DNA of 64,000 bases, taken from IMG/VR virus record IMGVR_UViG_3300047457_000500, positions 59,488 through 123,487 of that record; one strand, written 5' to 3'. The translations under genes and the position numbers were made by a program. Shown in pieces: positions 3,384 to 41,970 of the stretch. The stretch comes from a virus. The notes under the pieces were generated by a model. That model was not told the DNA's origin and did no database searches. It saw only the letters and a program-made list of their open reading frames with translations. Within the stretch, counting starts at the first letter, position 1. Each line of letters begins with the position of its first letter.

Positions 3384-4103
3384 TTATCCCCAAGGGGCAA
3401 AGTTAAATGTTGCCTCTGGGGTAAAACTAAATACGCTAAACGATGATTCTGGGGTAAAACTAAATACGCTAAACGATGATTCTGGTGTAAATGAGAATAC
3501 AGAAAACGCTGGCATGAAGTTAAACGATGGTTCTGGCGTAAATGAAAATACTCCAAACGGAGAGAATCCGAATACGCCAAACGGTGGCATAAAGTTAAAC
3601 GATGGCTCTGGCGTAAATGAAAATACCCCAAATGGAGAAAAGCCAAACACGCCGAACGGTGGCATGAAGTTAAACGATGGTTCTGGAACAAATGAAAACA
3701 CGCCAAATGGAGAAAAGCCGAATACACCAAATGGTGGCATGAAGTTAAACGATGGTTCTGGAACAAACGAAAATACTCCGAATGGGGAAAAACCAAAAAC
3801 GCCAAATGGGGAAAAACCAAAAACGCCAAATGGAGAAAAACCAAAAACACCAAATGGTGTAAATGCAAATGAATGAATCTTATAATTAACAGTGCTTTCA
3901 TAATCTAGCAATGTATTTGCAGGAACATCTTGTGATTTTACTAAACCAGTAAGTGCTTCGTTGTCTTGAACTTCTTCTGTTTCGGTACCATATTTAAACC
4001 CTGCATTTTGAAGAGATGTTCTTGCTTGAAGTTTTGTTAAGCCAATTAAATTAGGAACCGCATTCATTCCTTTTGCAAAAAATGCCCATAATGAATTTAA
4101 CAT
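3384..4103 (-). CDS. PASTA-domain protein with a C-terminal Phe/Pro-rich repeat
   Basis: VPNLIGLT..A...LQNAGF...G.V.SQ..PA PASTA pattern; repeat units vary synonymously in this frame. Confidence 0.75.
   Translation of the reverse strand: MLNSLWAFFAKGMNAVPNLIGLTKLQARTSLQNAGFKYGTETEEVQDNEALTGLVKSQDVPANTLLDYESTVNYKIHSFAFTPFGVFGFSPFGVFGFSPFGVFGFSPFGVFSFVPEPSFNFMPPFGVFGFSPFGVFSFVPEPSFNFMPPFGVFGFSPFGVFSFTPEPSFNFMPPFGVFGFSPFGVFSFTPEPSFNFMPAFSVFSFTPESSFSVFSFTPESSFSVFSFTPEATFNFAPWG
3390..3870 (-). repeat. Coding tandem repeat (FGVFGFSP / FGVFSFxPEPSFNFMPP / FSVFSFTPESS)
   Basis: 24-, 33- and 51-nt units are visible in the DNA, with a 75-nt higher-order period. Confidence 0.9.
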
Positions 4104-8983: not shown

Positions 8984-9012
8984 AATAGAAAGATTATACC
9001 ATCAAATATGGA

Positions 9013-9057
9013 CTTGCCCCAAGATCGGTGGGTATGAGAGACGGATCAAGGGGCAAG
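9013..9057 (-). ncRNA. Candidate small hairpin RNA with a 17-nt pyrimidine-rich loop
   Basis: Stem cttgcccc-aa-gatc / gatc-aa-ggggcaag; an extended -10 (TGATATACT, 9065-9073, minus strand) lies just upstream. Confidence 0.4.
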
Positions 9058-9273
9058 CATTAAAAGTATATCATAAAGGACAAAACGGACATTAGTTGTT
9101 TACGTCACAAATAGTTTATGGTATAGTACTTATAGGGTTTGTGGGGACTTTGCACTAGAGATATTATCTTCACTTCCACCATTAGATGTAACTAAAAAAT
9201 CTATGGGGGGAGGGGGGGACTTTCCCTAAAGATACTTACTATTATATAAAGAAAACAATGTTATAATCAATAT

Positions 9274-16917: not shown

Positions 16918-17028
16918 ATGTGAATTACGTTACAATAAAAAAATTTCCCAGATTTTACGGCGTGTCGTTTTGATTTTGTCAGTCCTAGATGATAGGATTA
17001 CAGAGTAATAAAATGAAAGGAAAACTAA

Positions 17029-17244
17029 ATGAGAAGTTACTCTATTGAAGATTTGTTGGTAGGGCAATACTATAAGCCTACCTCTCTAGCCCGTAGATTT
17101 ATGGGGGGAGAAATAAATTTTGCTGAAAAGCGTGATGATGTTTGGGTAGGCACAGACTATCAAGCCTACGCAATTCGTTATCGTGTTGGACAGTCCCTAA
17201 AGACTGATTGGGCTACTATTGCCGTTCGTGTGTCTGATTTGTAA
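17029..17244 (+). CDS. Small SH3-like early protein
   Basis: Paralog of 15944..16144; both leaders share attacagagtaataaaatgaaag. Confidence 0.65.
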   Translation: MRSYSIEDLLVGQYYKPTSLARRFMGGEINFAEKRDDVWVGTDYQAYAIRYRVGQSLKTDWATIAVRVSDL

Positions 17245-17294
17245 ATGTCAGACCAATATGCTAAGATTTCAGTATCAAAAGAAAGGATATAAAA

Positions 17295-17504
17295 ATGGAT
17301 AAATTGGAATACGCACTACGCACTATCGCTAATTGCGATTTGTGTTATGGTCAAGGTTATAATGGTTGGGCTATTGGCGAGGACTATGATATGGAGGATT
17401 GTATTTGTAATCCTTATGGTCTAATCCTTGAAAATGGCGAAGTTATTTTTGATAATGGCTTACTAAGTGAGCCTGAACTATTCACAACGCAGGAGGCTTA
17501 CTAA
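17295..17504 (+). CDS. Small zinc-finger protein
   Basis: CDLCYGQG...CIC; has its own PafBC-type promoter at 17245-17267. Confidence 0.65.
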   Translation: MDKLEYALRTIANCDLCYGQGYNGWAIGEDYDMEDCICNPYGLILENGEVIFDNGLLSEPELFTTQEAY

Positions 17505-17505
17505 T

Positions 17506-17790
17506 ATGGGAAGTAATTTTGCTAATGATTTGGCTTTGGCTGATAATCTAACTATTGAAACTCAGATTGAAATACACCTGAAGTCTAATCACTATCCACC
17601 CGTTCCGTCTTTCATGGTGCCTACTTGTATTGAGGCTATTGACGCTGTAAATGACGCAGGGCTTTGGCACTTAGAAATACCTCTACCTGAAGGGGTATTG
17701 TATAAGGGTAATTTGACTACCGCACCAGCACACGCTATTATTGACCAACACCACCTTGAAGCGTGGCTTATTGAAAGAGAGGAATACTAA
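17506..17790 (+). CDS. Early-region hypothetical protein
   Basis: MGSNFAND start with AGGAGG RBS; HL.SNHYPPVP motif. Confidence 0.65.
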   Translation: MGSNFANDLALADNLTIETQIEIHLKSNHYPPVPSFMVPTCIEAIDAVNDAGLWHLEIPLPEGVLYKGNLTTAPAHAIIDQHHLEAWLIEREEY

Positions 17791-18001
17791 AATGGAATAC
17801 AACTATGTTCTAACAACTTACTATGACGGAGAATTATTTTCTACTCATAGAATTAGCGACTTCATGGAAGCGCATGAGGCGTGGGCTAAATGTGTAGACT
17901 ACGGCAACGCTACCATGTTCGCAACTTATAATCTTACAGACCCAACAGGTAAAATGTATACAAAAAACTTTTATTCTGATGGCAGAGTAGAGATTAGATA
18001 A
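17791..18001 (+). CDS. Early-region hypothetical protein
   Basis: Probable start MEYNY just after the previous stop; GAGGA RBS. Start coordinate is approximate. Confidence 0.55.
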
Positions 18002-18229
18002 ATGTCTGCTACAATAAATGACATGGAACTAGTATTCGCTGATTATCTTTTGCCAAACCAATTGGCAGAAGGTGATCTAGTAAAGATTGAAGATCAATTT
18101 GTAACAGTAAAAACAATCATGGAAGCAAGTAATGGTTATCATTTAGTTTTGCTTGATGACTTTGATGATGAAGTTGAAGCATTTGTTTTAGATGATGACA
18201 AAATTGAATGGTACGTTTTTGTAGAGTAA
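18002..18229 (+). CDS. Small acidic SH3-like protein
   Basis: QLAEGDLVKI...VTVKTI beta-barrel pattern. Confidence 0.55.
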   Translation: MSATINDMELVFADYLLPNQLAEGDLVKIEDQFVTVKTIMEASNGYHLVLLDDFDDEVEAFVLDDDKIEWYVFVE

Positions 18230-18326
18230 AAGTGCCCGACTCGATTTGCACTAAATGTCCGTTTTACGTAGTTTGTTAAGAACCTCCCTATTTGATTTTC
18301 TAATATTTTTATGATATTATTATTTC

Positions 18327-18470
18327 ATGTTTAGAAAAAGCAAAGAGGAATTAAGGCGTATTCAAGAATTACGCAGATCTAACGCTGCCTCTGCCTTGCC
18401 AAACAAAAAGGCCTATACTAGACAAAGCAGCAAAAAAATGTTAGAATTAGAAAAGAAAGAAAGGCCCTAA
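18327..18470 (+). CDS. Small basic protein (47 aa, ...ELRRSNAASALPNKKAYTR...)
   Basis: Manual translation; extended -10 immediately upstream. Confidence 0.55.
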   Translation: MFRKSKEELRRIQELRRSNAASALPNKKAYTRQSSKKMLELEKKERP

Positions 18471-19190
18471 ATGAAACTAAAGCGCAGCAATGATAGGAAA
18501 GTAGCAAATGCAGTCTCCCCAAATGGAAAAACCCCAACAATCGCAAACACTTTTGGATTACCTAGTGGTAAGGCTTACTCATGTCCTGGTGAGACCTCTG
18601 TATGCAGCAAAGTATGCTACGCAGGAAAACTTGAAAAAATCTACAAAGGTGTAAGAGATACCCTATTACATAACTGGAATTTATTGAAAGACGCAGACCA
18701 TGACACTATGGAAGAGTTGCTCATGGAAATGATAGAAGACTTCAAAAAAGACTGTGATAAGCGTGAGGCTCCTAAACTATTTCGTATTCACTGGGACGGT
18801 GATTTCTTTTCGGATGAGTACGCATTCGCCTGGAAGCATGTTGTGCTAAATAATCCTGATGTTCAATTCTGGGTATACACTCGTGTGGCTTCCGCTGCTA
18901 ATATGCTCAAGAATATTGAAAACCTAAGTTTATATTTCTCTGCAGATAGTGAGAATATCAAAACCGCTGTAGAGTTAAAACAAACTCATGGCATTCGTAT
19001 GGCATACCTTGCACAAAATTTTGCTGCAGGACAAGAAAAAATGAAAGAACTTATTTCTAAACCTGGAGCAAAGTGTCCTGAAAATGCAAAACGCATTCCG
19101 CTTATTTCTACTAATGGAAGTGCGTGTGTGTCATGTGGGTTGTGTGTTTATAACAAGTCTGATATAGTATTCTCTGCTAGTAAAAAATAG
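18471..19190 (+). CDS. Gp88-like Fe-S/radical-SAM-fold protein
   Basis: SCPG.T..C.K.CYA, FRIHWDGDF, FWVYTR, C-terminal CP...CVSCGLC. Confidence 0.75.
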   Translation: MKLKRSNDRKVANAVSPNGKTPTIANTFGLPSGKAYSCPGETSVCSKVCYAGKLEKIYKGVRDTLLHNWNLLKDADHDTMEELLMEMIEDFKKDCDKREAPKLFRIHWDGDFFSDEYAFAWKHVVLNNPDVQFWVYTRVASAANMLKNIENLSLYFSADSENIKTAVELKQTHGIRMAYLAQNFAAGQEKMKELISKPGAKCPENAKRIPLISTNGSACVSCGLCVYNKSDIVFSASKK

Positions 19191-19419
19191 GAGTTGAAAT
19201 GAAAATGCAATATGTATTCTTAGCATGGTTCGTATTGTTATTTTTTATTTATCAATAGATCCCCCGCAAAAGTGGTCGGCCCCTAAACCTTAGATTTGTC
19301 AAGTTACGACGCTGTGATTAAGGACACAGGAAAAAACCTCATAAAATGCCATAAACGATTTGTATTTCTTGTATTTTTTTGCTAAACTTATACTATAACG
19401 ACAACAGAAAGGAAACGAA

Positions 19420-19587
19420 ATGACACTAGGCGGATACACTTATCAGGTAGGCGATTTATTCACCACCTCTAAGACAGGAGTTACAGGACGAATTGAAAAG
19501 TTTGTTCCTATCTCTCGTAATGTTACCAGAGTCATGCTACGCTTGGCAAATAACCAACAGCGTTTTGCTATGGTCAAAACACACTAA
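19420..19587 (+). CDS. Small SH3-like early protein
   Basis: YQVGDLFTTSKTGVTGRI; paralog of the next gene; manual translation. Confidence 0.65.
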   Translation: MTLGGYTYQVGDLFTTSKTGVTGRIEKFVPISRNVTRVMLRLANNQQRFAMVKTH

Positions 19588-19683
19588 TCTCAAAATATGA
19601 GAAATCTCAGAAATAACTTGACGAGAAATCTCAAAAATGCTAAAATTGAATATATCAACAACCAACTAACAAAGGAGAAAGAA

Positions 19684-19851
19684 ATGGCAGTAAATAACGC
19701 AACTTACAAGGTAGGCGACACCTACACCTCACAGAAGTCAAAGGTCACAGGTGTTATCACAGAAATCAAGCCAAACACAGACGGAACAAGCGTTCGTGTG
19801 AAACTTGATGTCAATGGCTCACCTCGCTGGACTACTTGGACAGCAAAGTAA
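19684..19851 (+). CDS. Small SH3-like early protein
   Basis: YKVGDTYTSQKSKVTGVI; AAGGAG RBS supports the 19684 start. Confidence 0.7.
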   Translation: MAVNNATYKVGDTYTSQKSKVTGVITEIKPNTDGTSVRVKLDVNGSPRWTTWTAK

Positions 19852-19866
19852 TTCCTAAACAGGAAA

Positions 19867-19896
19867 AGTCCTGAGCATGACTACTAAAACTGCTCA
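19867..19896 (+). ncRNA. Conserved 3' pseudoknot motif, copy 1
   Basis: AGTC-CTGAGCAT-GACT-ACTAAAAC-TGCTCA. Confidence 0.7.
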
Positions 19897-19931
19897 TAAC
19901 AACAAACAACGAAAGAAAAGGAAAATAACAA

Positions 19932-20354
19932 ATGGCACGACAAAAAGCAATTAGCGTGAAAATCGCTACAACCAAAGTTATCAAGGCTTTGGAAACTAAG
20001 TTAGCACAAATCAAGAAAGATAAGGCTAACCAAAAAACTAACGAGGAGAAGTATCAGAAGGCTCACGAAAAGTGGCTAAAAGATGTTGCTAAACTTTCTC
20101 TCGCTCAAATCTCAAAGGCAGAAAACCTACGAGCAAGCACACGCTACAATGGCATGGTAAATGTAGATTTTGATTTGCCTAAGTCTGTGGTAGCAGATTT
20201 CCCTGCTGAACCTGAAAAGGATTTTGAGACTTTTCATGAGTGGCAGTATAAGGAAATGGTTGAGGAAATTGAGAACGCAATTCGTATTCTCAAGATGACA
20301 GATGAGGAAGTAGTTTCTACTTCTACTTACAACGCTATCGCTAGATACTTGTAA
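19932..20354 (+). CDS. Hypothetical coiled-coil protein
   Basis: Strong RBS and biased codon usage. Confidence 0.7.
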   Translation: MARQKAISVKIATTKVIKALETKLAQIKKDKANQKTNEEKYQKAHEKWLKDVAKLSLAQISKAENLRASTRYNGMVNVDFDLPKSVVADFPAEPEKDFETFHEWQYKEMVEEIENAIRILKMTDEEVVSTSTYNAIARYL

Positions 20355-20425
20355 TTTGGTTGGGGGAGGGTATTTGACTCCCCCACTAATAAATGCTATG
20401 ATTAGATAATACGAAAGGATAAGCC

Positions 20426-20839
20426 ATGGAAACAACTAACATTCATAACGTCACTGAGGAATTTTTAAAAACTCAGATTACACAAAAAGATGAACGAATT
20501 CAGGTCCTGGAAGAGCATGTACAGCGTGTAACACAGCGTGACTACGCTACCGCTGGAAAACTGCAGGCAATGCGAGACGGTCTACACGAGTGGACTATGA
20601 CTGAATTAGAAAATAATGGAATCACAGAGGAGCAGGCTACTGAACTTTCTGAGATTGGTGGATTTGAACTTACAAAAGAAGTAGAGGCTGAAGTTACAGT
20701 CCGCTACTGGATTACTCTTCAGATTCCTGCAGGAGAAGACGCAGAGTCTGTAATCAATGATATTGATTTCGACGCAATTACATATGATACTGATGTGATA
20801 ACACATGTTAGTTCATCTGTAGACAGTATCGATATCTAA
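20426..20839 (+). CDS. Hypothetical acidic protein
   Basis: Own promoter (TTGACT...TATGAT) and GAAAGGA RBS. Confidence 0.7.
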   Translation: METTNIHNVTEEFLKTQITQKDERIQVLEEHVQRVTQRDYATAGKLQAMRDGLHEWTMTELENNGITEEQATELSEIGGFELTKEVEAEVTVRYWITLQIPAGEDAESVINDIDFDAITYDTDVITHVSSSVDSIDI

Positions 20840-20845
20840 CAATCT

Positions 20846-20918
20846 TCCTGGCCTTCATGAAAGGGGCCAGGATCTGCAAGCATCGCTCTTCTTTCATCCT
20901 TTCTTTCAAAGAGCATGC
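20846..20918 (+). ncRNA. Two hairpins, the second with an anti-SD loop (UCAUCCUUUCUUUC)
   Basis: tcctggcc/ggccagga stem, then a gcat-c-gctctt/aagagc-atgc stem around an 18-nt pyrimidine loop. Confidence 0.5.
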
Positions 20919-20921
20919 AAG

Positions 20922-20951
20922 GGACCTGAGCACGTCCACGTAAACTGCTCA
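20922..20951 (+). ncRNA. Conserved 3' pseudoknot motif, copy 2
   Basis: GGAC-CTGAGCAC-GTCC-ACGTAAAC-TGCTCA, followed by a T run. Confidence 0.7.
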
Positions 20952-21089
20952 TTTTTTATTGAAAAAGTGGTCGGGCGATTTGTCCTATATGTCCGATTTA
21001 CGAATTATGATCATATTCCCCAATCCTGGATTTGCTTTTGTCACCCCATTGTGCTAAACTTTAGATAACAAAACAGAAAGGAAATAAAA

Positions 21090-22097
21090 ATGGCTCATGA
21101 ATTAGAATCTGCTAATTCTTTCGCATCATTCCGTGAACCTGCTTGGCATGGTTTAGGAACTGTATTTCAGGAGGAAGTTACTACTGAAAAAATGTTGGAA
21201 CTCGCTAACCTTGATGGTTGGAATGTTCGTCTTGAAGATGTCGTAATCCCAGACACTCTTTCATCTGATAAATCTTATCAATATGTTGTGCGTGATAACC
21301 CATTCACCGCAAATCAAGTTGATGTTCTAGGCGTTGTTGGTGAACGCTATGTCCCATTGCAAAATGAAGACCTATTCACATTTGGTGATGCAATTCTTGA
21401 TGGCGGAGGTCGTTGGGAAACTGCTGGCTCATTGCGTGGTGGTCGTGTTGTATTTGGTTCTCTTGCTCTTGAGCGTGAGACTGTTCTAGACCCTAATGGC
21501 GTCGCTGATGTTGTCAAGACTTATCTTCTTGTCAACACATCACATGATGGTTCTGTTGCTATTCAAGCATCTGTAACACCTGTTCGTGTTGTATGCGCTA
21601 ACACTCTTGCTGTTGCACTAGGTCGCACTAGCAAAAAGGGTGGCGTAAAACAATCATTCAAGATTCGTCACACACAATCTGCTGAGGGTAAAGTTCAACA
21701 GGCTCGTGAGGCTCTTGCTGTTGCCAATGCTTATATGGATTCATTCTCTCTAATGGCTAAGGCTATGATTGAGAAAGAAATCACAGCGCAACAATTCAAT
21801 GATATTGTTCTCGCTGCGTATCCTAAGCCTGATGAAACCAAAAAGGGTGCATTGTCTAAGTGGACAACTAAGATTGACACTATCAATGACATCTATACAG
21901 GTGAATTCAATGGCATGATTGCTGGCACTGCATGGGGTGCATGGAATGCACTTACAGAAAGAATCGATTGGTATCGTGGAGGTAAGCGTGGTCTTACTGA
22001 ATCAATTCTAATGGGTTCAAGTGGATTTGACCCTGCTATCACAGCAGAAAAAAATCGTTTGCTAACTATTGTTCGCAACTCTCTAGAATTGGTGTAA
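21090..22097 (+). CDS. DUF932 family phage/plasmid protein
   Basis: MAHELE...PAWHGLG, ETAGSL.GGR, NTSHDGS and VRVVCANT motifs. Confidence 0.9.
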   Translation: MAHELESANSFASFREPAWHGLGTVFQEEVTTEKMLELANLDGWNVRLEDVVIPDTLSSDKSYQYVVRDNPFTANQVDVLGVVGERYVPLQNEDLFTFGDAILDGGGRWETAGSLRGGRVVFGSLALERETVLDPNGVADVVKTYLLVNTSHDGSVAIQASVTPVRVVCANTLAVALGRTSKKGGVKQSFKIRHTQSAEGKVQQAREALAVANAYMDSFSLMAKAMIEKEITAQQFNDIVLAAYPKPDETKKGALSKWTTKIDTINDIYTGEFNGMIAGTAWGAWNALTERIDWYRGGKRGLTESILMGSSGFDPAITAEKNRLLTIVRNSLELV

Positions 22098-22104
22098 CAA
22101 TTCA

Positions 22105-22131
22105 ACTCCTGAGCATGAGTAAAAACTGCTC
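22105..22131 (+). ncRNA. Conserved 3' pseudoknot motif, copy 3
   Basis: ACTC-CTGAGCAT-GAGT-AAAAAC-TGCTC. Confidence 0.7.
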
Positions 22132-22229
22132 TCTTGACAAAGATCAAAAAAGGTGCCGACCAAAAATATCATTTAGAAATTTAATTACGATACGTTGACA
22201 AAATCCCCAAATTTTGCTATTATTTATTC

Positions 22230-22424
22230 ATGGACCAAAAAGAACTAACGACATACATGACAAACCTGCGTAGTGGCCTGGATGAAGACCTACGTAATCT
22301 TGCTGCAGAAATGGACTCTATTGACCCTGCCTCTAAAGACTTTGCAGACCTAGACTTTGAGTTTAATTATATTACAGGACAAGTATCAATGTTAAGCCAT
22401 ATACTACAAAAGATAGGACAATAA
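22230..22424 (+). CDS. Hypothetical protein
   Basis: TTGACA-N17-TATTAT promoter, apparently leaderless. Confidence 0.6.
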   Translation: MDQKELTTYMTNLRSGLDEDLRNLAAEMDSIDPASKDFADLDFEFNYITGQVSMLSHILQKIGQ

Positions 22425-22582
22425 TGCTGGGGTATACAGAAGAACAAGTAGATAAGATGCTCACTACATTAAACTATACTATTCATCATCATATGACTGG
22501 TAAGTTTGCAGATGAGGATAGGTCAGTACTTAGAGATCTAGAGGACTTCTTACAGGGTTTGTTAGCAGAGGGACGTATTTGA
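22424..22582 (+). CDS. Small hypothetical protein (MLGYTEEQ...GLLAEGRI)
   Basis: TAATG coupling; manual translation. Confidence 0.55.
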   Translation: MLGYTEEQVDKMLTTLNYTIHHHMTGKFADEDRSVLRDLEDFLQGLLAEGRI

Positions 22583-22634
22583 CATCCCCCTGATATTTTG
22601 CTAGAATTGCATACAACGACTAGAAAGGAATAAT

Positions 22635-23330
22635 ATGCCAAATTGGGTATATAACTCTCTAACTATTGAGGGTAATGCAGAAGACATTTCTGCTATCAAA
22701 ACACAACTAAACCAACCATTCCAACGTCAACACGACCAATGGAATATGGAAACAAGACAAATGGAATTACAGGATGTTACTTATTCAAACCCTGTATTTG
22801 CATTCTGGAATATTATCAAGCCAACTAATCTAGAGGCATACAATAAGCAGTCTGACCATTCATTACCTATGGAAGAACAACTTATGTTCAAGGGTGATAA
22901 CTGGTATGACTGGAATGTAACTAACTGGGGAACCAAATGGGATGTTGCTGTATCAGATAATGAGCAGTATCCTGAGACTGAACTAATCAACGAAGAGGAT
23001 TGGTCAGATAGACTTACCTATAGTTTCAATACCGCTTGGTCTCCTCCTCTTCCTGCTATTGCTACATTGTCAGAACAATATCCTAATTTAGAATTTACCT
23101 TGTCATACGAGGAAGAAACAGGCTGGGGTGGCGAAATAGAGTTCCTCAATGGTCAAGATACTGTATTAGAAAACTATGAAAACAAATGTCGTGACTGTGA
23201 TTCAATCAACACACTAGAGTATTGCGAAAACGACTGTGGTGAGATATGCTCTGATTGCCATTACATGGGTGAGGCAGACTTAGAGTGTGTTGCAGAGTGT
23301 GACATACATAAAGAATACTTGGAGGCATAA
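22635..23330 (+). CDS. DUF1281/YubB-like ferredoxin-fold protein with a Cys-rich tail
   Basis: MPNWV.N.L.I.G, WYDWN..NWGTKW and F.TAWSPP motifs. Confidence 0.8.
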   Translation: MPNWVYNSLTIEGNAEDISAIKTQLNQPFQRQHDQWNMETRQMELQDVTYSNPVFAFWNIIKPTNLEAYNKQSDHSLPMEEQLMFKGDNWYDWNVTNWGTKWDVAVSDNEQYPETELINEEDWSDRLTYSFNTAWSPPLPAIATLSEQYPNLEFTLSYEEETGWGGEIEFLNGQDTVLENYENKCRDCDSINTLEYCENDCGEICSDCHYMGEADLECVAECDIHKEYLEA

Positions 23331-23581
23331 TGTTACCTGATTATCTAAAGAATGCAATCAATGCAGGTGCTACAGGACTAGATGTCATGCACGGGCACCT
23401 GAAGACGCTTATGCTTGACGCAGAACGGGAACTAGAAGAGGCGCAGCGGGTAGAAGACGAGACCGAAGAGGCCATTGATTCCATGGAGCGCAAGTACTGG
23501 GAGGGACAATTAGACGCCCTATCATATGTTTATAGCCTTACATATGAACTGTCATTTGCAGTAGCGGATAGGGAGGAATAG
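23330..23581 (+). CDS. Hypothetical protein
   Basis: TAATG coupling; DSMERKYWEGQLDAL. Confidence 0.6.
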   Translation: MLPDYLKNAINAGATGLDVMHGHLKTLMLDAERELEEAQRVEDETEEAIDSMERKYWEGQLDALSYVYSLTYELSFAVADREE

Positions 23582-23660
23582 ATCCACGTGTATGAGCAAT
23601 TGACATTAGACCTGGACCCTGATATCATTAATACAAACCCAACTACAGAAAGGACCCCCC

Positions 23661-24020
23661 ATGGGAGCACGTTGTAACTTTATCTTTAAACAATCAGAGG
23701 ACCAGGCCGTAGCGCTGTACAGCCACTGGGACGAAGACCATATGTATGAACTCCTGGCAGCAGCCCTGCAGCATGCAATGCCACGTATTCAAATGGGTGA
23801 TACCCCGTATGCGACTCGTATGGCTATCAGTTACATTATCAAGGATAGTATCTTAGATGAGACTGGATATGGAATTTATGCCTGTGACCCCTCAGACCAG
23901 GGATTCATGGACCATCCAATCACAATAGATTTCACAGACGGTACCGTGGGCAGCGGTGAAGACTGGCACTCAATTCCTGATTTTATTTCTTATCATTCTG
24001 CTCAGTTAATTACAAAATAA
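23661..24020 (+). CDS. Hypothetical phage protein (MGAR...LYSHW family)
   Basis: AGAAAGGA RBS; recurrent phage motif. Confidence 0.7.
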   Translation: MGARCNFIFKQSEDQAVALYSHWDEDHMYELLAAALQHAMPRIQMGDTPYATRMAISYIIKDSILDETGYGIYACDPSDQGFMDHPITIDFTDGTVGSGEDWHSIPDFISYHSAQLITK

Positions 24021-24027
24021 TAACTTT

Positions 24028-24087
24028 GGGGCGTAAGGTTTGGTTTATTCCTTTCGTCGTTGTGCCTTGCGCCCCTCCCACTTTTTT
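24028..24087 (+). ncRNA. Hairpin with an anti-leader/anti-SD loop and a T tract
   Basis: 12-bp stem ggggcgtaaggt/gccttgcgcccc; the loop is complementary to 22613-22633. Confidence 0.55.
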
Positions 24088-24105
24088 GATAGAATAGGAG
24101 TAACT

Positions 24106-24324
24106 ATGACTACACGCAGACACAGACTAACTGACGAGGAACGAGTTGCCATGCGCCTTGCCACTTTAGTATCTGACTTGCGACTTGACATCGAGCAGGT
24201 TGGGCAGTATTTAGCGCAGGTAGCACCAACAGTATCGTATAATAGACTTATCACAATCGCAGAAAGCGCACAACATCACAAAGAGGAGAAATACAATGAG
24301 CAATACCAATACAGACTTTTCTAG
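24106..24324 (+). CDS. Hypothetical protein
   Basis: AGGAG RBS before MTTRRHR. Confidence 0.6.
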   Translation: MTTRRHRLTDEERVAMRLATLVSDLRLDIEQVGQYLAQVAPTVSYNRLITIAESAQHHKEEKYNEQYQYRLF

Positions 24325-24568
24325 TCGTTGTAATATTCTGGCAGACCTGTGGTTGAACTATAAAGATGATGCTGAGTTTTCTGACTTCATACAATATAAT
24401 GACATGGGTTTGCCCCTAGCATTTTTTGTTAGTCAAGAAGTTGTTCCTAGTAATGATATGGTAATGAACTATGTCAATGAAACTTGGGAGTTATTCTTAG
24501 AGGCTCTAAAGATAGAAGACACAGGGTTTGACACACTTGACGAATTGCTAATGGGATTTGACAAGTAG
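24296..24568 (+). CDS. Hypothetical acidic protein
   Basis: GAGGAG RBS. Confidence 0.65.
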   Translation: MSNTNTDFSSRCNILADLWLNYKDDAEFSDFIQYNDMGLPLAFFVSQEVVPSNDMVMNYVNETWELFLEALKIEDTGFDTLDELLMGFDK

Positions 24569-24600
24569 CCACGAAAGTGGTCGGCATATTATTTTAGTTA

Positions 24601-25220
24601 TACAAACCATTACGATACCAAACCATTTTTCCCCAAAATAGGATTACGATCCAAACCATATTTTTCCCAAACCATGATAAATGGTGTTATGATTATATGT
24701 ATGCCAAGACATTTTTATAGAGTTAATTATCCAAACCAAGCAAATGATGATGATAGAGGTTTGCATAATGCCTTTGTAGCCTTTACTCATCTTATAGGTC
24801 TTAGTAAGTACTTCTCTTTTATCCCGCCCGTTTTTGACAGGGACGAGTGGCGGGCCGAACACGGGGCGGGATCTAAAAAAGATTACGATCATACCATATA
24901 TCCCCCTAATAAGCAATAACAAACCATATTTCCTGGTTTTAAAACATTTTCAAACATAATAAAAAGTATTACGAACTTATTGGAATTTTCCCAGACTTTT
25001 GGCAATTTTTCTGCATAAATCTATTACGAAGATACTTGACAAACCATGGTTTTGCAGATATAATGCCCAAACCTTGATATATGGTTTGACAGATATGGGG
25101 CATATATGGTATAAGGGTTTGATGGATATAGGGTTTGATGGTTTGGCATTACGATCCCCGCATTAAAAAGCGCTTCATTACCCATATCTCTCCACTATCC
25201 TCCACTTTACTCCACATATA
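24601..25220. repeat. Iteron-like tract of CAAACC(AT) and ATTACGA repeats
   Basis: About 12 CAAACC/GGTTTG copies and 6 ATTACGA copies; orientation switches near 25045. Confidence 0.65.
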
Positions 25221-25274
25221 AAATAACAGTAAGATTTATTTTTCAAAATAAGCGATGCTATAATTAAGTTTGCC

Positions 25275-25766
25275 ATGATAAAAGACGTATTTACGCAGCC
25301 ACAAATAGATTTTATAAACCAACTCGTGTTGGATAACTATGACAAATTGGATAGCAGGTATTCAGAACGAGGTAGGGAAGATATCGTTTTAACTCCCAAT
25401 GGGACAGCAGCATTTGAGAACCTAAACCCTATTGCCAAAGAAATATGTGACCGTGTGCTTTCATATTTTGATGAGGGTAAATACATCAATGCCATAACCT
25501 ATGGTGAATACACAAACAAACACACCAACCCTAATCTTCCACCACACAAGGATCCTATCCATACCAAGAATGGCCTAACCTTTGACTACCTATTGGATTC
25601 AAATGTTGATTGGCCAATATGTCTGGAAGGTGACTGTGTGAGCCTAGAAAAGAATGATGCTATCATTTTTAGTCCATGTGAGCAGTATCACCACAGACCA
25701 GAAATGATATTTAATGATGGCGATTATGTTAAAGTTTTATTTTTTATGATTAGGACAAACCAATGA
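25275..25766 (+). CDS. 2OG-Fe(II) oxygenase-like protein (HxRP subfamily)
   Basis: PNLPPHKD, TFDYLLD and QYHHRP motifs. Confidence 0.7.
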   Translation: MIKDVFTQPQIDFINQLVLDNYDKLDSRYSERGREDIVLTPNGTAAFENLNPIAKEICDRVLSYFDEGKYINAITYGEYTNKHTNPNLPPHKDPIHTKNGLTFDYLLDSNVDWPICLEGDCVSLEKNDAIIFSPCEQYHHRPEMIFNDGDYVKVLFFMIRTNQ

Positions 25767-25918
25767 TATCTCACGACTCAAAAGTTGATATTATTGTAGA
25801 AATAATACACGAACATCTAAAGGGTAAGCATAAGGACTCTCTATCTAAAAGATTGGCGGTAGAGATAATTGAAGCCCTAGATGACGAACCTACACCATCA
25901 TGGTATGAACACGGTTAA
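25763..25918 (+). CDS. Small hypothetical protein (51 aa)
   Basis: ATGA coupling; manual translation. Confidence 0.5.
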   Translation: MISHDSKVDIIVEIIHEHLKGKHKDSLSKRLAVEIIEALDDEPTPSWYEHG

Positions 25919-26149
25919 TGCTATAATGGAAAGATGTCTGATACATTGAAATGTTATTATTGTGATAACAAACCAGAATATACTCAACCAGATAAGACTA
26001 CTGGTGTTATCGTCGATGTTTGTAAAAGACATTTTATCTACATGTATATGGGGTGATTATGGACAAAGATAAGGCAGATGCCAACTTCAAGGCTTTTTGG
26101 ATTCTATTGGGATCTATCATTGTTATTCTTACTATAGTAGGGATTGCTA

Positions 26150-26326
26150 TTGGGTAATAGGGCTAATAGGGATTACGAAGAACTTACAGATCCCGTCGAA
26201 CTTTTGGTAAAAACCAAAGCACCTACTAAATGGTTATTGATAGATAGGGAAACAGGACAAGTCTATCAAGGCAGTCCATATGGTCATTGGGATAGGTTAG
26301 ATCCTGTTATAAAGGATAAAATATGA
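26150..26326 (+). CDS. Hypothetical protein
   Basis: KTKAPTKWLLIDRETGQVY motif; TTG start. Confidence 0.55.
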   Translation: MGNRANRDYEELTDPVELLVKTKAPTKWLLIDRETGQVYQGSPYGHWDRLDPVIKDKI

Positions 26327-26859
26327 GAGTTCATTTACTTACCCTGCCTGGAATGAAAGAAACTGTTGGAGAATATATCCAGATTAAGTTTGAAATCCCT
26401 CACGTTTCATTTAAGTATTCATTTGGACCAGATATGCCAGAAGATGATGTAGATCACATTATTGGCCTGTGCAGAAAACCACAAGAGGCCATTGCTGATC
26501 TTATTCATCAAGGATATGAAACACCTGCAGCATTAGAAAAATATAGAAGATATTCGGATTATATATGTGACAATGCTAAAACCATAATAAACTATGAATC
26601 TCTTAAAGATATAGATGGTTTGACTAAGGCATTGTTTAATCATTTTGCCCTTGAGGATGATAACTGGAAAACCAAAACTGGCAAAGAGTCTTTGTTTGAT
26701 GAGATAATGTCTAGGCAAATTCCATTTAATGTATGGGTTGAGCCATATCAGGATGCATTCAAGGGATTAATGTATCCAGAGATAGTCTTAAAGGGCATGA
26801 TAGATGAAAGACTATTAGAGCATTATGATAAGGTGGATACTAGAACTATTAAACCCTAG
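26323..26859 (+). CDS. Hypothetical protein, possibly a degenerate sulfotransferase fold
   Basis: R.P..AI.. and I.YE.L segments; weak similarity. Confidence 0.45.
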   Translation: MRVHLLTLPGMKETVGEYIQIKFEIPHVSFKYSFGPDMPEDDVDHIIGLCRKPQEAIADLIHQGYETPAALEKYRRYSDYICDNAKTIINYESLKDIDGLTKALFNHFALEDDNWKTKTGKESLFDEIMSRQIPFNVWVEPYQDAFKGLMYPEIVLKGMIDERLLEHYDKVDTRTIKP

Positions 26860-26892
26860 TGCTAGTGTCTAGCATAAAATGGTTTGATATTT

Positions 26893-27780
26893 CTATTTAC
26901 CGCCGAACTTTAAGCGCTTGTTTATTAGGTCTATAACTGTTTCAGAAACTTCTTTATTCCACCCACCGCCAGGGTGTTGATTATCGCCAGCCAAAAACCA
27001 ATACTTTACATCGCTGTTACCGTAATCCTTTTTTGTGTAATCTGGATAAGATGTGGGTATTTTAAAATAAGAACTATATTGTTCAGCAAAGTTATCAAAT
27101 ACAGACTCTGAGTCAATATGCCAAGTACTCCACAAAAATATAGAGCCATTTGCCTTGAATATATTTTCTAATAAATCTATCATTGTCAAATAAACTATTG
27201 CATTTTCTTGCGGTATATAGTTTTCTTTATACTTTGATAACTCCTCATACATCCAGTCAACCGTATTGTCTTTATAGAAGTTTAATTGGGCTGGTATAAA
27301 CTGATCTATGTATGTGCTGTAAATCATCTTTCGATGGATGTCTGGCAATATCATTACTAGCACATCTGGTATTCCGTATTTATTAATAAAGGCGCATATA
27401 TTTTTTATTATTAAATGAATTGATGCACCCATCATAGAAAGATTATAGCCTTTAGTGTCTTTTATATTTTTAAAGTATTCTGTTGTAAAATCAGACCATC
27501 TAAATTCTTGTGGGATATCCTGTCCAAAACTAAAAGAGCATCCACTGTACAATATGTTTAAATTGTCTTTATTTAAAGGCTCAAAGTTGTCTGTTCTAAA
27601 TCCGTCTTTATTTATCTTATATGTTATATCATCAGCATTTGTGCTCTTAGTATAAAAATAATCATTATCCCAGTACCCTTCTCTGGTTAGCATAGATCCA
27701 TTAACACCTTTGATATGAAATTGTGAATGATCAAAAACAGTTATGTTTTTATATATACTTTCATTAATGTTTAACGTCAT
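26893..27780 (-). CDS. SGNH/GDSL-like protein
   Basis: GCSFSFG and GDNQHPG motifs; tandem paralog of the next gene. Confidence 0.7.
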   Translation of the reverse strand: MTLNINESIYKNITVFDHSQFHIKGVNGSMLTREGYWDNDYFYTKSTNADDITYKINKDGFRTDNFEPLNKDNLNILYSGCSFSFGQDIPQEFRWSDFTTEYFKNIKDTKGYNLSMMGASIHLIIKNICAFINKYGIPDVLVMILPDIHRKMIYSTYIDQFIPAQLNFYKDNTVDWMYEELSKYKENYIPQENAIVYLTMIDLLENIFKANGSIFLWSTWHIDSESVFDNFAEQYSSYFKIPTSYPDYTKKDYGNSDVKYWFLAGDNQHPGGGWNKEVSETVIDLINKRLKFGGK

Positions 27781-28649
27781 AAAACCTCAAGCACTCGTTT
27801 TGCAAATCTTTCATGCCACCCACCACCTGGATGTCTACCATCCCCTGCTATTTTCCAATACGGAGATTCGTGCTCCTCATAGTCTTGCTTAACAGACCTT
27901 GGACCACTTATTAAGTTTTTAGAATCAAACCAGCAATCTAAATCGTTGGCAAACATAGAAAAACAATCCTCAGTTAAACCATCATATGTAGAAACTAAAA
28001 ACTTAGAGCCAGCATTTTTGCATAATAACTCTAATAATTTAAGCATTAATAAATTATTTAATAATAAATTTTCTGGCATCAGTTGATCAACAAAATTTTT
28101 AGCATCGGGCTTTTGTGTTCTAGGAGTTAAATCAAAAAATTCTGATGTCACTGGATCAAAAGTAACTGTTCTAGTTATATCTGGCATTAATGCAATTATT
28201 AAATCTGGCATTCCGTAAGTATTAATAAAAGCACATATGTTGCTAAGTGTTAAAAATATAGATCCACCCATAATAGACAAATTATATTCTTCAACATCTT
28301 TATTTTTAGATAATTCTTTTGTTATTAGTTTTGTCCATAACATCTCTTCTGGTAGATCTTGTCCAAATGTTACTGAGCATCCGCTATACAAAACCGTAAA
28401 CTTTTTCTTATCCACTGGCTTAAAATTATTGCATCTAAAACCCTGTTTGTTTAACTTATATAATAAGTCTATACTAAGTTTCATTGTATGCACATTATGC
28501 GTATAATAATAATCATCTTCCCAATATCCAGAATCCATTTTATTATTACTTTTATTAGAGTTAAAAACCATCTGCATTCTGGTATTTACTATAGTATTAG
28601 GGCTAAGAATATCCCTATTATTATTTAAAATATCAGTTTTATATGCCAT
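27777..28649 (-). CDS. SGNH/GDSL-like protein
   Basis: GCSVTFG and GDGRHPG motifs. Confidence 0.7.
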   Translation of the reverse strand: MAYKTDILNNNRDILSPNTIVNTRMQMVFNSNKSNNKMDSGYWEDDYYYTHNVHTMKLSIDLLYKLNKQGFRCNNFKPVDKKKFTVLYSGCSVTFGQDLPEEMLWTKLITKELSKNKDVEEYNLSIMGGSIFLTLSNICAFINTYGMPDLIIALMPDITRTVTFDPVTSEFFDLTPRTQKPDAKNFVDQLMPENLLLNNLLMLKLLELLCKNAGSKFLVSTYDGLTEDCFSMFANDLDCWFDSKNLISGPRSVKQDYEEHESPYWKIAGDGRHPGGGWHERFAKRVLEVL

Positions 28650-29547: not shown

Positions 29548-29621
29548 GGAGCAGTAGCCAAGTTGGTCAAGGCCCCGAACTCATAATTCGGCTATCGTAG
29601 GTTCGAGTCCTACCTGCTCTA
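29548..29621 (+). tRNA. tRNA with CAT anticodon (Met or Ile2)
   Basis: GGAGCAG/CTGCTCT acceptor, CCGAA-CTCATAA-TTCGG anticodon arm, GTTCGAG T loop. Confidence 0.9.
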
Positions 29622-29623
29622 CA

Positions 29624-29787
29624 AGGCTCATCAGGAATTCGACCTCTCGATGAGTACAACTGCCCTGAAACCAGCCTGGTGGTAGTCGTTGGATAACCTG
29701 TGTCGAACAGGCCCAAGCAGACAGCATCTAAGGAGCAGAGCCAGTAGTTATATTCGCCGTAAAAACGGGTAGCGTGACTGGCACCCA
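29624..29787 (+). ncRNA. Unassigned structured RNA between tRNAs
   Basis: GC-richer 165-nt spacer with several stems (ctcatc/gatgag, cctgt/acagg, gccagt/actggc). Confidence 0.4.
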
Positions 29788-29788
29788 A

Positions 29789-29861
29789 GCCCTTGTAGCC
29801 CAGTGGTAGAGGCACACGACTTAAAATCGTGCAAGCGTTGGTTCGAATCCAACCAGGGGTA
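29789..29861 (+). tRNA. tRNA-Leu(TAA), short variable arm
   Basis: CACGA-CTTAAAA-TCGTG anticodon arm. Confidence 0.9.
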
Positions 29862-29862
29862 C

Positions 29863-29939
29863 GCATCTGTAACTCAGTTGGTTAGAGTACCCGCCTTATA
29901 TGCGGAGAGCCGAAGGTTCAAGTCCTTCCAGATGTACCA
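29863..29939 (+). tRNA. tRNA-Ile(TAT)
   Basis: CCGC-CTTATAT-GCGG anticodon arm; encoded CCA. Confidence 0.85.
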
Positions 29940-29940
29940 G

Positions 29941-30012
29941 ACCTCTGTAACTCAGCGGAAGAGTAGCGGACTTCTAATCCGTTTGTCGCAGGTTCGATTC
30001 CTGCCAGGGGTG
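29941..30012 (+). tRNA. tRNA-Arg(TCT)
   Basis: GCGGA-CTTCTAA-TCCGT anticodon arm. Confidence 0.9.
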
Positions 30013-30028
30013 CTACAATTAAGTACTT

Positions 30029-30104
30029 TGGTCTGTAGTTCAGTTGGTAGAACACTCGACTGTTAATCGAGATGTCGCAGGATCGAGACCTGCCAGACCA
30101 GCCA
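30029..30104 (+). tRNA. tRNA-Asn(GTT)
   Basis: CTCGA-CTGTTAA-TCGAG anticodon arm; variant T loop ATCGAGA; encoded CCA. Confidence 0.9.
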
Positions 30105-30105
30105 A

Positions 30106-30179
30106 GGTCCGTTAGTTCAGTTGGTTAGAACGCTACCCTGTCACGGTAGAGGTCGTCGGTTCAAGTCCGATACGGATCG
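30106..30179 (+). tRNA. tRNA-Asp(GTC)
   Basis: CTACC-CTGTCAC-GGTAG anticodon arm. Confidence 0.9.
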
Positions 30180-30180
30180 C

Positions 30181-30251
30181 TGGAACATAGTGTAGTGGTA
30201 GCACAACGGATTCCAAACCCGTTAGTGTGGGTTCGATTCCTACTGTTCCTG
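30181..30251 (+). tRNA. tRNA-Trp(CCA)
   Basis: ACGGA-TTCCAAA-CCCGT anticodon arm; T:T mismatch at 1:72. Confidence 0.8.
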
Positions 30252-30255
30252 CAAT

Positions 30256-30327
30256 GGCACTATCGTCTATCGGTTAGGACATCGCCCTTTCACGGCGGAA
30301 AGACGGGTTCGATTCCCGTTAGTGCTG
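30256..30327 (+). tRNA. tRNA-Glu(TTC)
   Basis: TCGCC-CTTTCAC-GGCGG anticodon arm. Confidence 0.9.
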
Positions 30328-30362
30328 CGGGTTGTCGTAGGTTCAAATCCTACAGGAGGCTC
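30328..30362 (+). pseudogene. 3' half of a tRNA
   Basis: Variable loop, GTAGG-TTCAAAT-CCTAC T arm and acceptor 3' strand AGGAGGC; no 5' half. Confidence 0.7.
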
Positions 30363-40236: not shown

Positions 40237-40439
40237 TTTTCTCCCTTTGTGTTAGTTGGATGATCTAATGGAGTTGGAACTGTCATTAAAGCACCACATT
40301 CATTGCATTCCCCGTCTAAAAAATAAATCCCTATTTCATAATCTGAGGGATCAAAAATAACCTTTACTCTTATTACTTTAGAGCCACACATTAAGCAACA
40401 TGACGATGGGATACCACGTAGATTAACCTTGTTCTTCAT
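40233..40439 (-). CDS. Zinc-ribbon protein
   Basis: CLMCGS...CNECG. Confidence 0.6.
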   Translation of the reverse strand: MKNKVNLRGIPSSCCLMCGSKVIRVKVIFDPSDYEIGIYFLDGECNECGALMTVPTPLDHPTNTKGEK

Positions 40440-41970
40440 AAAACTTTTCCTTTAAAATATGAAAATGTGTTTTAGAGTTATCTACAATACTGTCCCATAC
40501 ATTTTTTGCTTCCTGTCTTTTCTGAAAATATTTTTCCATTTTATTCTTAATGTCAGAATTATTAGCATCAGACATTTTTTCAAGAAGACTTATATATGTT
40601 TTATAAAATGGTCTTATGCCAAACCCTGCCTTGATAGTGTCTACGTTATTATTTGCCCATTCTACATTAGATTTAAAATAATTTTTTGGATATGACTTAG
40701 AGGTAACACTTCTCCAATACTCTGTGTCATTTCTTTGAGACAATGCGTAATGCATTCCTACAAAGTCAAACATTTTTTCTATTCTTGTTTTAGTTTTATA
40801 ATTAAAATTATCAATGTCATACTGTGTTACTGATCCTCTTTCAAGAGCATCTACCAACGTAAAGCAATTTTGATGAGTAAGTAATAAGCCAGTGCTTTCA
40901 AGAGGTTCTAAAAACCCTGCTGCCAAACCTACAGCAACAACATTACCAACCCAAAATCTATCATAGTATCCGTTGTGTATTTTTATATTTTTAAATGTTA
41001 AAGATTTTGATCTTTCTGGATCGTGAACCACCATTTGATCAGAATCTAAGTATTGCTTATACTCCTCAAGAGCATCTTCATCACTTATAAAATCATTACA
41101 GTATACATATCCAGAACCAATTCTATTCCAAAGAGGGATGTTCCAGACCCATCCATTATTAATAGCAGTACAATTAGTAAAGGTTTGTAACTCTTTTTCT
41201 TTATTAGTATATGGAACATGCGCTGTCCATGCCCTGTTGTTAGGCAAAAACTCTGCTGTTGAGATAAACTTTTCATTGATAAACTTACCTAGCAATATAC
41301 TGTTAAATCCAGAACAATCAACAAATAAATCAGCAGTTACTTCTGTGCCATCATCTAAAACTAAAGAATGTATTCCTGAATTGCTTGGGTAAATTTTATT
41401 TACTGTACCCCAAATTCTTTTTACTCCTCGTGGCATAGCATAAAACTCTGCAAGCCAGTTGCCTAATTTAGTAGCATCCATTTGCAATGCCAAATCCCTA
41501 TGCGGTTGGTAAGGATTCATGTCCTCTATATGATCAACCACGATCTTATTTGTTTCTATACTTTTTGCCTGCGGGAAAAAATATCTAACATAATCTTGAT
41601 CTTCAGTTTCTGGGTAAAAAGCCTTTTTATAATACCAATCATCTAAACCAAAACATGTTAACTCTTTATCTAAATTTGGGTGCCCAAATGGATAATAAAA
41701 TGTTTTAGAGTCTTTAGTTTTAAAGTTTGTAAAACCAATTGCAACCTTGTATGAAGCATTTGTATACTTCATAATACTAGAATAATCTAAATCTAAAAAG
41801 TTAAAGAATCCATTTATTTCAAATGTAGTGCTTTCTCCAACACCTATTATAGGAACATCTTTACTTTCAATTAAAACTATTTCTTTTTCAGGATATGCTT
41901 TTATCAAAGCAGATGCTGTCATCCATCCAGCGGACCCTCCGCCAACAATAACTATCTTATCTGTCTTCAT
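40423..41970 (-). CDS. Flavin-dependent tryptophan halogenase-like protein (PrnA family)
   Basis: GGGSAGW, GVGEST, FVDCSG, GWVWNIP and FLEPLESTG motifs. Confidence 0.9.
   Translation of the reverse strand: MKTDKIVIVGGGSAGWMTASALIKAYPEKEIVLIESKDVPIIGVGESTTFEINGFFNFLDLDYSSIMKYTNASYKVAIGFTNFKTKDSKTFYYPFGHPNLDKELTCFGLDDWYYKKAFYPETEDQDYVRYFFPQAKSIETNKIVVDHIEDMNPYQPHRDLALQMDATKLGNWLAEFYAMPRGVKRIWGTVNKIYPSNSGIHSLVLDDGTEVTADLFVDCSGFNSILLGKFINEKFISTAEFLPNNRAWTAHVPYTNKEKELQTFTNCTAINNGWVWNIPLWNRIGSGYVYCNDFISDEDALEEYKQYLDSDQMVVHDPERSKSLTFKNIKIHNGYYDRFWVGNVVAVGLAAGFLEPLESTGLLLTHQNCFTLVDALERGSVTQYDIDNFNYKTKTRIEKMFDFVGMHYALSQRNDTEYWRSVTSKSYPKNYFKSNVEWANNNVDTIKAGFGIRPFYKTYISLLEKMSDANNSDIKNKMEKYFQKRQEAKNVWDSIVDNSKTHFHILKEKFYEEQG

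Follow-up and report, generated by a model that had tools for sequence, protein, structure and literature searches.

A promoter-fused RNA hairpin in an uncultured phage has a loop complementary to the ribosome-binding leader of an upstream gene

In the IMG/VR virus record IMGVR_UViG_3300047457_000500, the stretch from position 59,488 to 123,487 (64,000 nucleotides; hereafter the window, numbered from its first letter) contains a hairpin at 24028–24075 whose apical loop is antisense to the leader of an Api92-like gene (22635–23330) located upstream on the same strand. The complementarity is far beyond chance, and in the few relatives with a loop of similar length the loop follows the leader of its own phage. 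The hairpin is primarily a family-wide module, of which the 3′ arm is the −35 element of the next promoter. We suggest, with a probability of roughly one half, that the loop pairs with the leader as the 3′ and 5′ ends of an mRNA and occludes the ribosome site of the Api92-like gene, as in the icaR mRNA of Staphylococcus aureus. This proposal builds on direct observations of the complementarity and its statistics, the accessibility of the loop, the fold of the sense strand, and the co-variation of loop and leader.

All 24 bases of the loop (24040–24063, + strand) are paired in the duplex with the leader (target 22613–22641), which consists of 8 bp (22613–22620), a TA bulge, 11 bp (22623–22633), a TAT bulge, and 5 bp (22637–22641; GCCAA, over the G of the ATG plus codon 2). 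A first, sequence-only reading of the window had matched the reverse complement of the loop to the leader of gene 22635 as 8 + 11 bp; the match is as described and longer by the additional 5 bp. The pattern ACAACGAC-N(0–4)-GAAAGGAA occurs exactly twice in the window, at 22613–22630 (+) and 24048–24063 (−), and across 100 shuffles it had a mean of 0.00, with none having two or more. A fuzzy search with the 19-mer (up to four edits, both strands, 123,487 bp) returned the leader at 22613 as the only close match, with two inserted bases; the remaining four matches have four edits each. When the loop was compared by RNAduplex with every 40-nt segment on both strands of the genome, the leader was the best non-self target (−28.3 kcal/mol), followed by the leader of gene 20426 (−22.6) on a background with a mean of −7.4 and a standard deviation of 3.0. 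Shuffles and the genome-wide duplex search therefore both place the claimed complementarity far above chance. By itself, the 11-mer with one mismatch is ordinary (5 found versus 3.19 expected). A further likeness, to leaders at 19397–19422 and 19897–19934, did not hold up, as these are merely A/C-rich plus GAAAGGAA and fall outside the best 25 duplex segments. A gene start on the minus strand was considered for the second copy and rejected since, as the same reading had stated, no ATG, GTG, or TTG follows it.

The match covers the predicted 5′ end of a transcript. A sigma-70-type promoter at 22579–22607 (+; TTGACA-17-TAGAAT with a TG before the −10, 11/12 consensus matches) precedes the Api92-like gene and is conserved upstream of this gene in relatives. 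The target at 22613–22641 (+) comprises the predicted 5′-terminal leader, the SD (Shine-Dalgarno sequence) GAAAGGA, the start codon, and codon 2, such that the complementarity spans the whole predicted 5′ untranslated region (UTR), the SD, and the ATG. It begins 6 nt past the −10 hexamer in the window and in a related lineage, the L051 type, and 9 nt past it in another, the L020 type; position 22613 would thus roughly coincide with the +1 of transcription. A local fold leaves the first 20 nt of the leader unpaired. Gene 22635 had been taken as the first of its cluster, which is correct relative to the promoter at 22579–22607, but there are also a promoter at 22195, two small open reading frames (ORFs) just upstream, and an internal promoter at 23600.

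The hairpin consists of a 5′ arm, GGGGCGTAAGGT (24028–24039), the 24-nt loop with an anti-SD core (CCTTTC, 24050–24055), and a 3′ arm, GCCTTGCGCCCC (24064–24075), all on the + strand. Sequence and fold bear out the GC-rich, 12-bp stem (two pairs are G.U) that had been described as presenting the loop: the predicted energy is −23.3 kcal/mol (z = −3.14; 1 of 200 shuffles as stable) and the loop is essentially open. The 3′ arm holds the −35 hexamer TTGCGC (24067–24072) of a downstream promoter of the extended −10 type at 24067–24095 (+), read from the sequence, in which a 17-nt spacer with a T6 tract (24082–24087) and a TG (24087–24088) leads to TAGAAT (24090–24095). A T tract had been noted after the stem; it is present, but begins 6 nt past the stem and does not adjoin it. 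Searches with Rfam 15 covariance models over 18000–28000, at E up to 1, gave only a chance miRNA match at 20195–20259. Judged by eye, the loop and the SD of the gene downstream share only ∼4 nt of complementarity, and pairing between them was rejected.

Across relatives, the hairpin and the promoter form a unit. Of 91 sources (90 loci and the window; 32 distinct hairpins), 74 have a T-tract plus a G-N-TA-N-A-A-T element after the hairpin, and the module is present in 79/79 further loci that were fetched by alignment of the 72-residue protein encoded after it. The TTGC in the 3′ arm is invariant in all 32 distinct hairpins, with partners in the 5′ arm that change only via wobble. The arms co-vary elsewhere in the stem by two-sided compensatory changes: position +4 is C-G in 18 hairpins and G-C in 13, and position +6 is G-C in 18 and A-T in 10. 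A count over 34 distinct hairpins, in which both G.T and A.C were allowed as pairs, found 342 Watson-Crick, 89 G.T, and 9 A.C pairs. Because G.T pairs greatly outnumber A.C pairs and the stem co-varies, the hairpin is selected in + strand RNA, that is, in the sense transcript from upstream. The open loop that had been claimed therefore sits on a structure formed by the sense RNA, but the hairpin is primarily the promoter-fused module of a family and not a canonical terminator. A whole-genome scan returned four sites with a hairpin plus a promoter, in six overlapping rows. The site at 24028 is the only one that also has a TTGC in its 3′ arm; the stems of the other three are unrelated to it.

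Other hairpins were seen around such sites. In many relatives, a small extra hairpin with a conserved loop (∼TTGGGTC) and co-varying stems stands before the main one; in L001, L009, L027, L032, and others it lies just after the stop of the homologue of the 119-residue gene, and the window is without it. Separately, a hairpin with a ∼29-nt loop at 9012–9058 (−) is followed by an extended −10-like sequence, TGGTATAAT.

The loops of the relatives turn over rapidly, with sizes from 3 to 30 nt, and long anti-leader loops (23–24 nt) occur in three lineages only, those of the window, the L051 type, and the L020 type. In the L051 type, the Api92-like protein is 67% identical and the unit ends with a different gene. 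Its hairpin differs from that of the window by one loop base, and its own leader reads ...ACAACGACTAGAAAGGAACCCAATG; the sole loop change makes CCCAA, which matches its own spacer (leader ...GGAACCCAATG). In the L020 type (66% identical), a 23-nt loop holds a 13-nt exact complement of its own leader, ...CAACAAAGAAAGG..., and the ACAACGAC of the window is ACAACAAA in leader and loop alike. An 18 × 18 matrix of loop-by-leader energies ranks the own leader first, second, and first for the long loops of the window, L051, and L020, respectively. In a permutation test with anchor-based loop interiors, over all 27 distinct interiors, only 4 of 20,000 permutations reached the observed own-leader sum. 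A metagenome scan for long-loop hairpins returned nine stretches, three of the L020/L051 types and six unrelated, and no new lineage. Co-variation, which the sequence-only reading had named as a check on its idea, is thus seen in part: loop and leader change together in the L051 and L020 types, but most relatives have short, unrelated loops.

A number of observations weigh against regulation by pairing. Most relatives show no loop-leader match, including the closest (L003/L045; 84% amino acid identity in the Api92-like protein, 8-nt loop), and because their loops are short and unrelated, an anti-leader loop must be dispensable, an optional add-on. Without the three long loops, 3,043 of 20,000 permutations reached the observed sum, and 1,971 of 20,000 did so when the anti-SD loops were also left out (19 remaining); since significance goes with the long loops, lineage-specific pairing is established only for these. 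The hairpins of the window and L051 differ by 1 nt and may go back to a recent common ancestor or an exchange, which leaves only about two independent lineages with two or three informative substitutions. Loops with only an anti-SD core match all leaders equally (own-leader ranks 3–13 of 18). In structural terms, a closed 24-nt loop makes a full two-turn helix difficult unless the free 5′ end of the partner winds in. The hairpin is also not a canonical intrinsic terminator, for which a loop of ∼3–8 nt and a U tract directly behind the GC-rich stem are expected, given its 24-nt loop, a T6 that is 6 nt from the stem, and its absence from the sites listed by a terminator scan.

Other observations concern the transcript. 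In transcripts from the promoters at 22195 or 23600, the leader would be internal or absent. No canonical terminator-like site was found by the terminator scan on the + strand between 22607 and 24028. Contigs identical to parts of the region are present in two metatranscriptome runs (X1 and X2), in which 22636–23193 and 23161–23775 are separate pieces; contigs cannot establish a single transcript. One X2 contig (23983–24322) bridges the hairpin, for which read-through or DNA carry-over are possible sources. These RNA-library contigs give no ends, strand, or level, and the parts they do not cover are uninformative, such that they neither support nor refute the proposal. For the predicted transcript of 1,478 nt, both the minimum free energy (MFE) fold and the centroid fold pair the leader with the loop sequence, as do full-length MFE folds of L051 (21 leader nt) and L020 (13 nt). 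This is weak evidence, because MFE folding is unreliable for RNAs of 1.5 kb and does not accommodate a pseudoknot of loop and leader.

Several of these points would also be expected if the element were a structural module only, a hairpin serving as a transcript end or insulator plus a −35, whose tolerant loop took in an inverted copy of the leader that persists as a neutral relic without a pairing function. We regard this as unlikely, though as the alternative most deserving of attention. It accounts for a module that is universal (74/91 and 79/79) while its loops are hypervariable, for an unrelated loop of 8 nt in the closest relative, and for a specificity that is gone without the three long loops. 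Mosaic boundaries near the module, as in the composite promoter/terminator cassettes described for T4-like phages (PMC4122927), also fit. However, a neutral relic should decay independently of the leader, and the L020 loop follows its own leader at two changed positions, while the sole change in the L051 loop lengthens the match to its own leader. The CCTTTC core is retained in loops with differing flanks, and the edges of the match coincide with the predicted +1 and start codon.

The anti-SD core is itself recurrent. Seven of 25 distinct loops (8 of 32 distinct hairpins) contain CCTTTC, whereas the sense hexamer GAAAGG is in none; composition-preserving shuffles of the loops averaged 0.41 and never exceeded 5 in 5,000 trials. 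Among the matches listed, TCCTTTC on the + strand within 17000–26860 occurs only at 20897 and 24049, each time in the loop of an intergenic hairpin downstream of a gene. The first of these belongs to one of two hairpins (20846–20872 and ∼20880–20918) that follow gene 20426–20839; the second hairpin of this pair has an 18-nt loop (20891–20908), CTTTCATCCTTTCTTTCA, that resembles an anti-SD tail. For this loop, RNAduplex returned no specific target, with generic purine-rich stretches as the best matches. A separate scan of viral sequences was conditioned on CCTTTC plus a promoter (68 stretches, 17 with the family module and 9 with a different hairpin) and is excluded from the frequencies given here. 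In a group of viral contigs unrelated to this family (L105, L108, L109, L113, L123, L135, L143, L155, and L157), a 10-bp GC stem with a loop of a T-run plus CCTTTCT places an anti-SD-like loop directly before a gene start.

Such recurrence raises the possibility that the loop is a generic mimic of the anti-SD tail of 16S rRNA (CCUUUC), acting on many SDs, or binding or decoying a protein such as S1 or a toxin that cuts the anti-SD (MazF-mt3 cleaves at UCCUU). The loop is presumably similar to the 3′ end of actinobacterial 16S rRNA. The frequency of CCTTTC among loops, the second hairpin of the window with its untargeted CTTTCATCCTTTCTTTCA loop, and the indifference of anti-SD-only loops to the identity of the leader all fit this explanation. 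So does the full-length MFE fold of L003, where a CCTTTCTT tail directly behind the hairpin pairs with the SD of the Api92-like leader, although a C-rich end of the stem with a T tract behind it could produce such a pairing by chance. The matches of the window, L051, and L020, however, reach 8–13 nt past the SD into lineage-specific leader sequence, and the own leader is ahead of the next target by ∼6 kcal/mol. We consider a generic mimic improbable. In short-loop relatives (L003 at 3413–3424; L027 and L048 types), CCTTTCTTTTT directly follows the hairpin.

A different loop motif, TTTGTGGTGGG (variant TTTTGGTAGGG), recurs and complements CC(A/G)CCA or CTACCA in the Api92-like leaders of the same phages, where these motifs are near the 5′ end and just before the ATG; the pairing is ∼−12 kcal/mol. 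Interiors of this type are found in L060–L068, L038, L074, L188, L030/L048, and L055, with variants in L006, L025, and L026. The correspondence is suggestive of the same principle, but a permutation test of this loop class against CC(A/G)CCA leaders was not significant. One could extend the proposal to an evolvable "address", a loop rewritten in each lineage to mirror the leader of its operon, with the completion of transcription circularizing the mRNA and silencing its first gene, and with CCUUUC-only and UGGUGG loops as shorter versions. We hold this broader scheme to be doubtful.

If loop and leader do pair, the effect could still be other than repression. The duplex might shield the 5′ end from 5′-end-dependent RNases, in the way proposed for the hbs mRNA of Bacillus subtilis; the complementarity includes the very 5′-terminal nucleotides, and hbs offers a precedent (PMC5737220). 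We find a protective role very unlikely, since the duplex also buries the SD and start codon and should block initiation at the first cistron. Alternatively, both copies could be DNA sites of one binding protein, an operator at +1 to +21 of the promoter at 22579 and a site upstream of the −35 at 24067, which are classical regulatory positions relative to promoters. But the copies differ by internal insertions of 2 and 3 nt, while those of L051 have 3 nt inserted on the opposite side; insertions are tolerated by RNA helices as bulges and usually not in protein-DNA recognition. The site is asymmetric and inverted, its second copy is inside a hairpin whose G.U-rich co-variation reflects selection at the RNA level, and protein profile searches identified no regulator gene. 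Shared protein-binding sites are the explanation we consider least probable of all.

Repression by pairing would proceed as follows. The hairpin is a conserved fold of sense RNA, situated where an early unit transcribed from the promoter at 22579 would end, and in three lineages its loop is enlarged to 23–24 nt and carries the antisense of the leader of that same unit. Pairing could be triggered by completion of the 3′ end, or by the build-up of a stable fragment containing the 3′ hairpin. The open loop would nucleate on the free, unstructured 5′-terminal leader, of the same molecule or in trans; a comparable nucleation from loop to 5′ end was reportedly described for RNA-OUT and RNA-IN by Kittle et al. 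in 1989. From there the duplex may spread over the SD and start codon, and binding of the 30S subunit to the Api92-like cistron would be blocked. The resulting duplex of 19–24 bp may be cuttable by a double-strand RNase, and the predicted outcome is negative feedback on the first cistron. Among phages, lambda sib retroregulation is known, and Saito and Richardson are said to have addressed T7 gene 1.2 and RNase III in 1981. We infer that both elements are on one RNA or meet in trans, that they pair in vivo, and that the consequence is repression and not stabilization. The sequence-only reading, which had likewise proposed a small RNA or long-range cis fold that occludes the ribosome site, is thus supported in part. 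It had gone further and proposed a timer that turns off early genes; as only one leader, that of gene 22635, is a specific target, both timer and class-wide shutoff are conjecture.

The window is the final 64 kb of a phage genome of 123,487 bp and 35.7% G+C. From ∼17 to 27 kb, it has a row of small + strand genes behind near-consensus sigma-70 promoters, and the flanking genes have PHROG matches, mostly of unknown function. The gene of a DUF932 protein (21090–22097) has tblastn matches mostly in actinophages, all below 60% identity, and the phage may have an actinobacterial host. Megablast of 22400–24400 against GenBank phages found no match, while related contigs are plentiful in IMG/VR; RNA libraries that hold the region are labeled aquatic, freshwater, or wastewater. 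Elsewhere in the window are a cluster of eight tRNA genes at 29548–30328 (+; Met, Leu, Ile, Arg, Asn, Asp, Trp, and Glu) and two genes of auxiliary-metabolism type at 40423–41970 (−) and 53445–54965 (−), assigned to the PHROG families tryptophan halogenase and Nol-like carbamoyltransferase.

The unit that ends in the hairpin has three genes on the + strand. The Api92-like gene (22635–23330; 231 residues, DUF1281_C, PF18406 at E 1.1e-13, phrog_12644) is the first cistron after the promoter at 22579. An 83-residue ORF (23330–23581) is second, with homologues in relatives and no family match in profile searches. An internal promoter at 23600–23628 (+; TTGACA-17-TATCAT, with TG), conserved in sequence in relatives, is ahead of the last cistron before the hairpin, a 119-residue ORF (23661–24020; phrog_31860, 44 related loci). 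Searches of the operon proteins against PDB and NCBIfam returned nothing. The next unit starts with a 72-residue ORF (24106–24324, +; SD AGGAG at 24096–24100), homologues of which are always just downstream of the hairpin-promoter module. The −10 hexamer is so close to the ATG of this gene (24090–24108; a gap of only 10 nt, and of 10–17 nt in relatives) that transcripts from the promoter at 24067 would be without the AGGAG SD and nearly leaderless. Read-through transcripts would keep this SD. A TTG at 24040, in the loop, opens a stop-free frame into the 72-residue gene (24040–24105), but it is probably not coding, as relatives differ in this spacing.

Should the pairing be functional, the hairpin would provide a phage example of pairing between the 5′ and 3′ ends of an mRNA, for which few bacterial cases are known to us (icaR and hbs). 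The design is unusually clean, in that one loop mirrors a leader from +1 to start codon while its hairpin contributes to the next promoter as well, and it illustrates how a loop in a conserved structural RNA may be recruited for regulation. Natural variants with long, SD-only, or unrelated loops make the idea directly testable by compensatory mutations. If the pairing is not functional, there is still a well-defined, conserved module of RNA hairpin and promoter in a large group of uncultured freshwater phages.

The closest described system is icaR of S. aureus, in which pairing of the 3′ UTR with the SD blocks initiation and makes a substrate for RNase III (PMC3868564). In icaR, a pyrimidine-rich anti-SD in the untranslated 3′ end is complementary to the SD region of its own mRNA (PMC3868564). 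The phage sequence is likewise a pyrimidine-rich anti-SD; it is downstream of the last stop, on the same strand, and complementary to the SD region of an upstream cistron, with which it would share a transcript. The icaR motif is described as a 7-nt UCCCCUG in the long 3′ UTR of a monocistronic bacterial mRNA (PMC3868564). In contrast, the phage element is a 24-nt loop in the last hairpin of a three-gene unit, mirrors the leader from +1 to codon 2, carries the next −35, and is known from sequence alone. In hbs of B. subtilis, a 14-bp interaction of 5′ and 3′ UTRs modulates cleavage by RNase Y in the leader (PMC5737220). A long-range pairing of the two ends of one mRNA is proposed for the phage as well, but its duplex covers the SD and start codon, and the hbs pairing is not described as masking the SD in the account we draw on (PMC5737220).

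In IS10, pairing of RNA-OUT with RNA-IN prevents ribosome binding, and RNA-OUT resembles the phage element in being a hairpin RNA with complementarity to both the 5′ end and the initiation region of a target mRNA (PMC5006887). RNA-OUT is, however, encoded in cis by the strand opposite its target, to which 35 nt are perfectly complementary (PMC5006887), whereas the phage antisense segment is 1.4 kb downstream on the same strand and pairs with two bulges. Classification as a cis-encoded antisense RNA of this type was therefore rejected.

Two phage repeat families also bear comparison. The PeSLs of T4-like phages (see also PMC2839356) are many-copy composite terminator/promoter repeats proposed to mediate recombination (PMC4122927). 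Like a PeSL, the element here joins a stem-loop to an early promoter within a region of early phage genes, and the genes on either side are mosaic. Its stem-loop is directly followed by an early promoter, TTGCGC-17-TAGAAT, that overlaps the 3′ arm. PeSLs have many near-identical copies, but only four such sites were found genome-wide, of which that at 24028 alone is of this design. A loop antisense to a leader is a feature of the phage hairpin and is not described for PeSLs in the cited account (PMC4122927). The start-associated sequences (SAS/ESAS) of Cluster K mycobacteriophages center on a 13-bp repeat before many genes, without a known function, for which an RNA or protein partner has been suggested (PMC3203893). 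SAS are conserved, phage-specific sequences at the ribosome-binding position of non-structural genes of actinophages, with a rare copy on the complementary strand (PMC3203893). The leader here is comparable in position, but unlike SAS it is a single leader with a single antisense copy in the loop of a hairpin. Full-text literature searches, which were not exhaustive, found no described pairing of a phage terminator loop with a leader. Taken jointly, four features distinguish the element from the systems compared here: the antisense sequence fills the last apical loop of the operon, it mirrors an entire leader, it is on the same strand and 1.4 kb away, and its hairpin doubles as the −35 of the next promoter.

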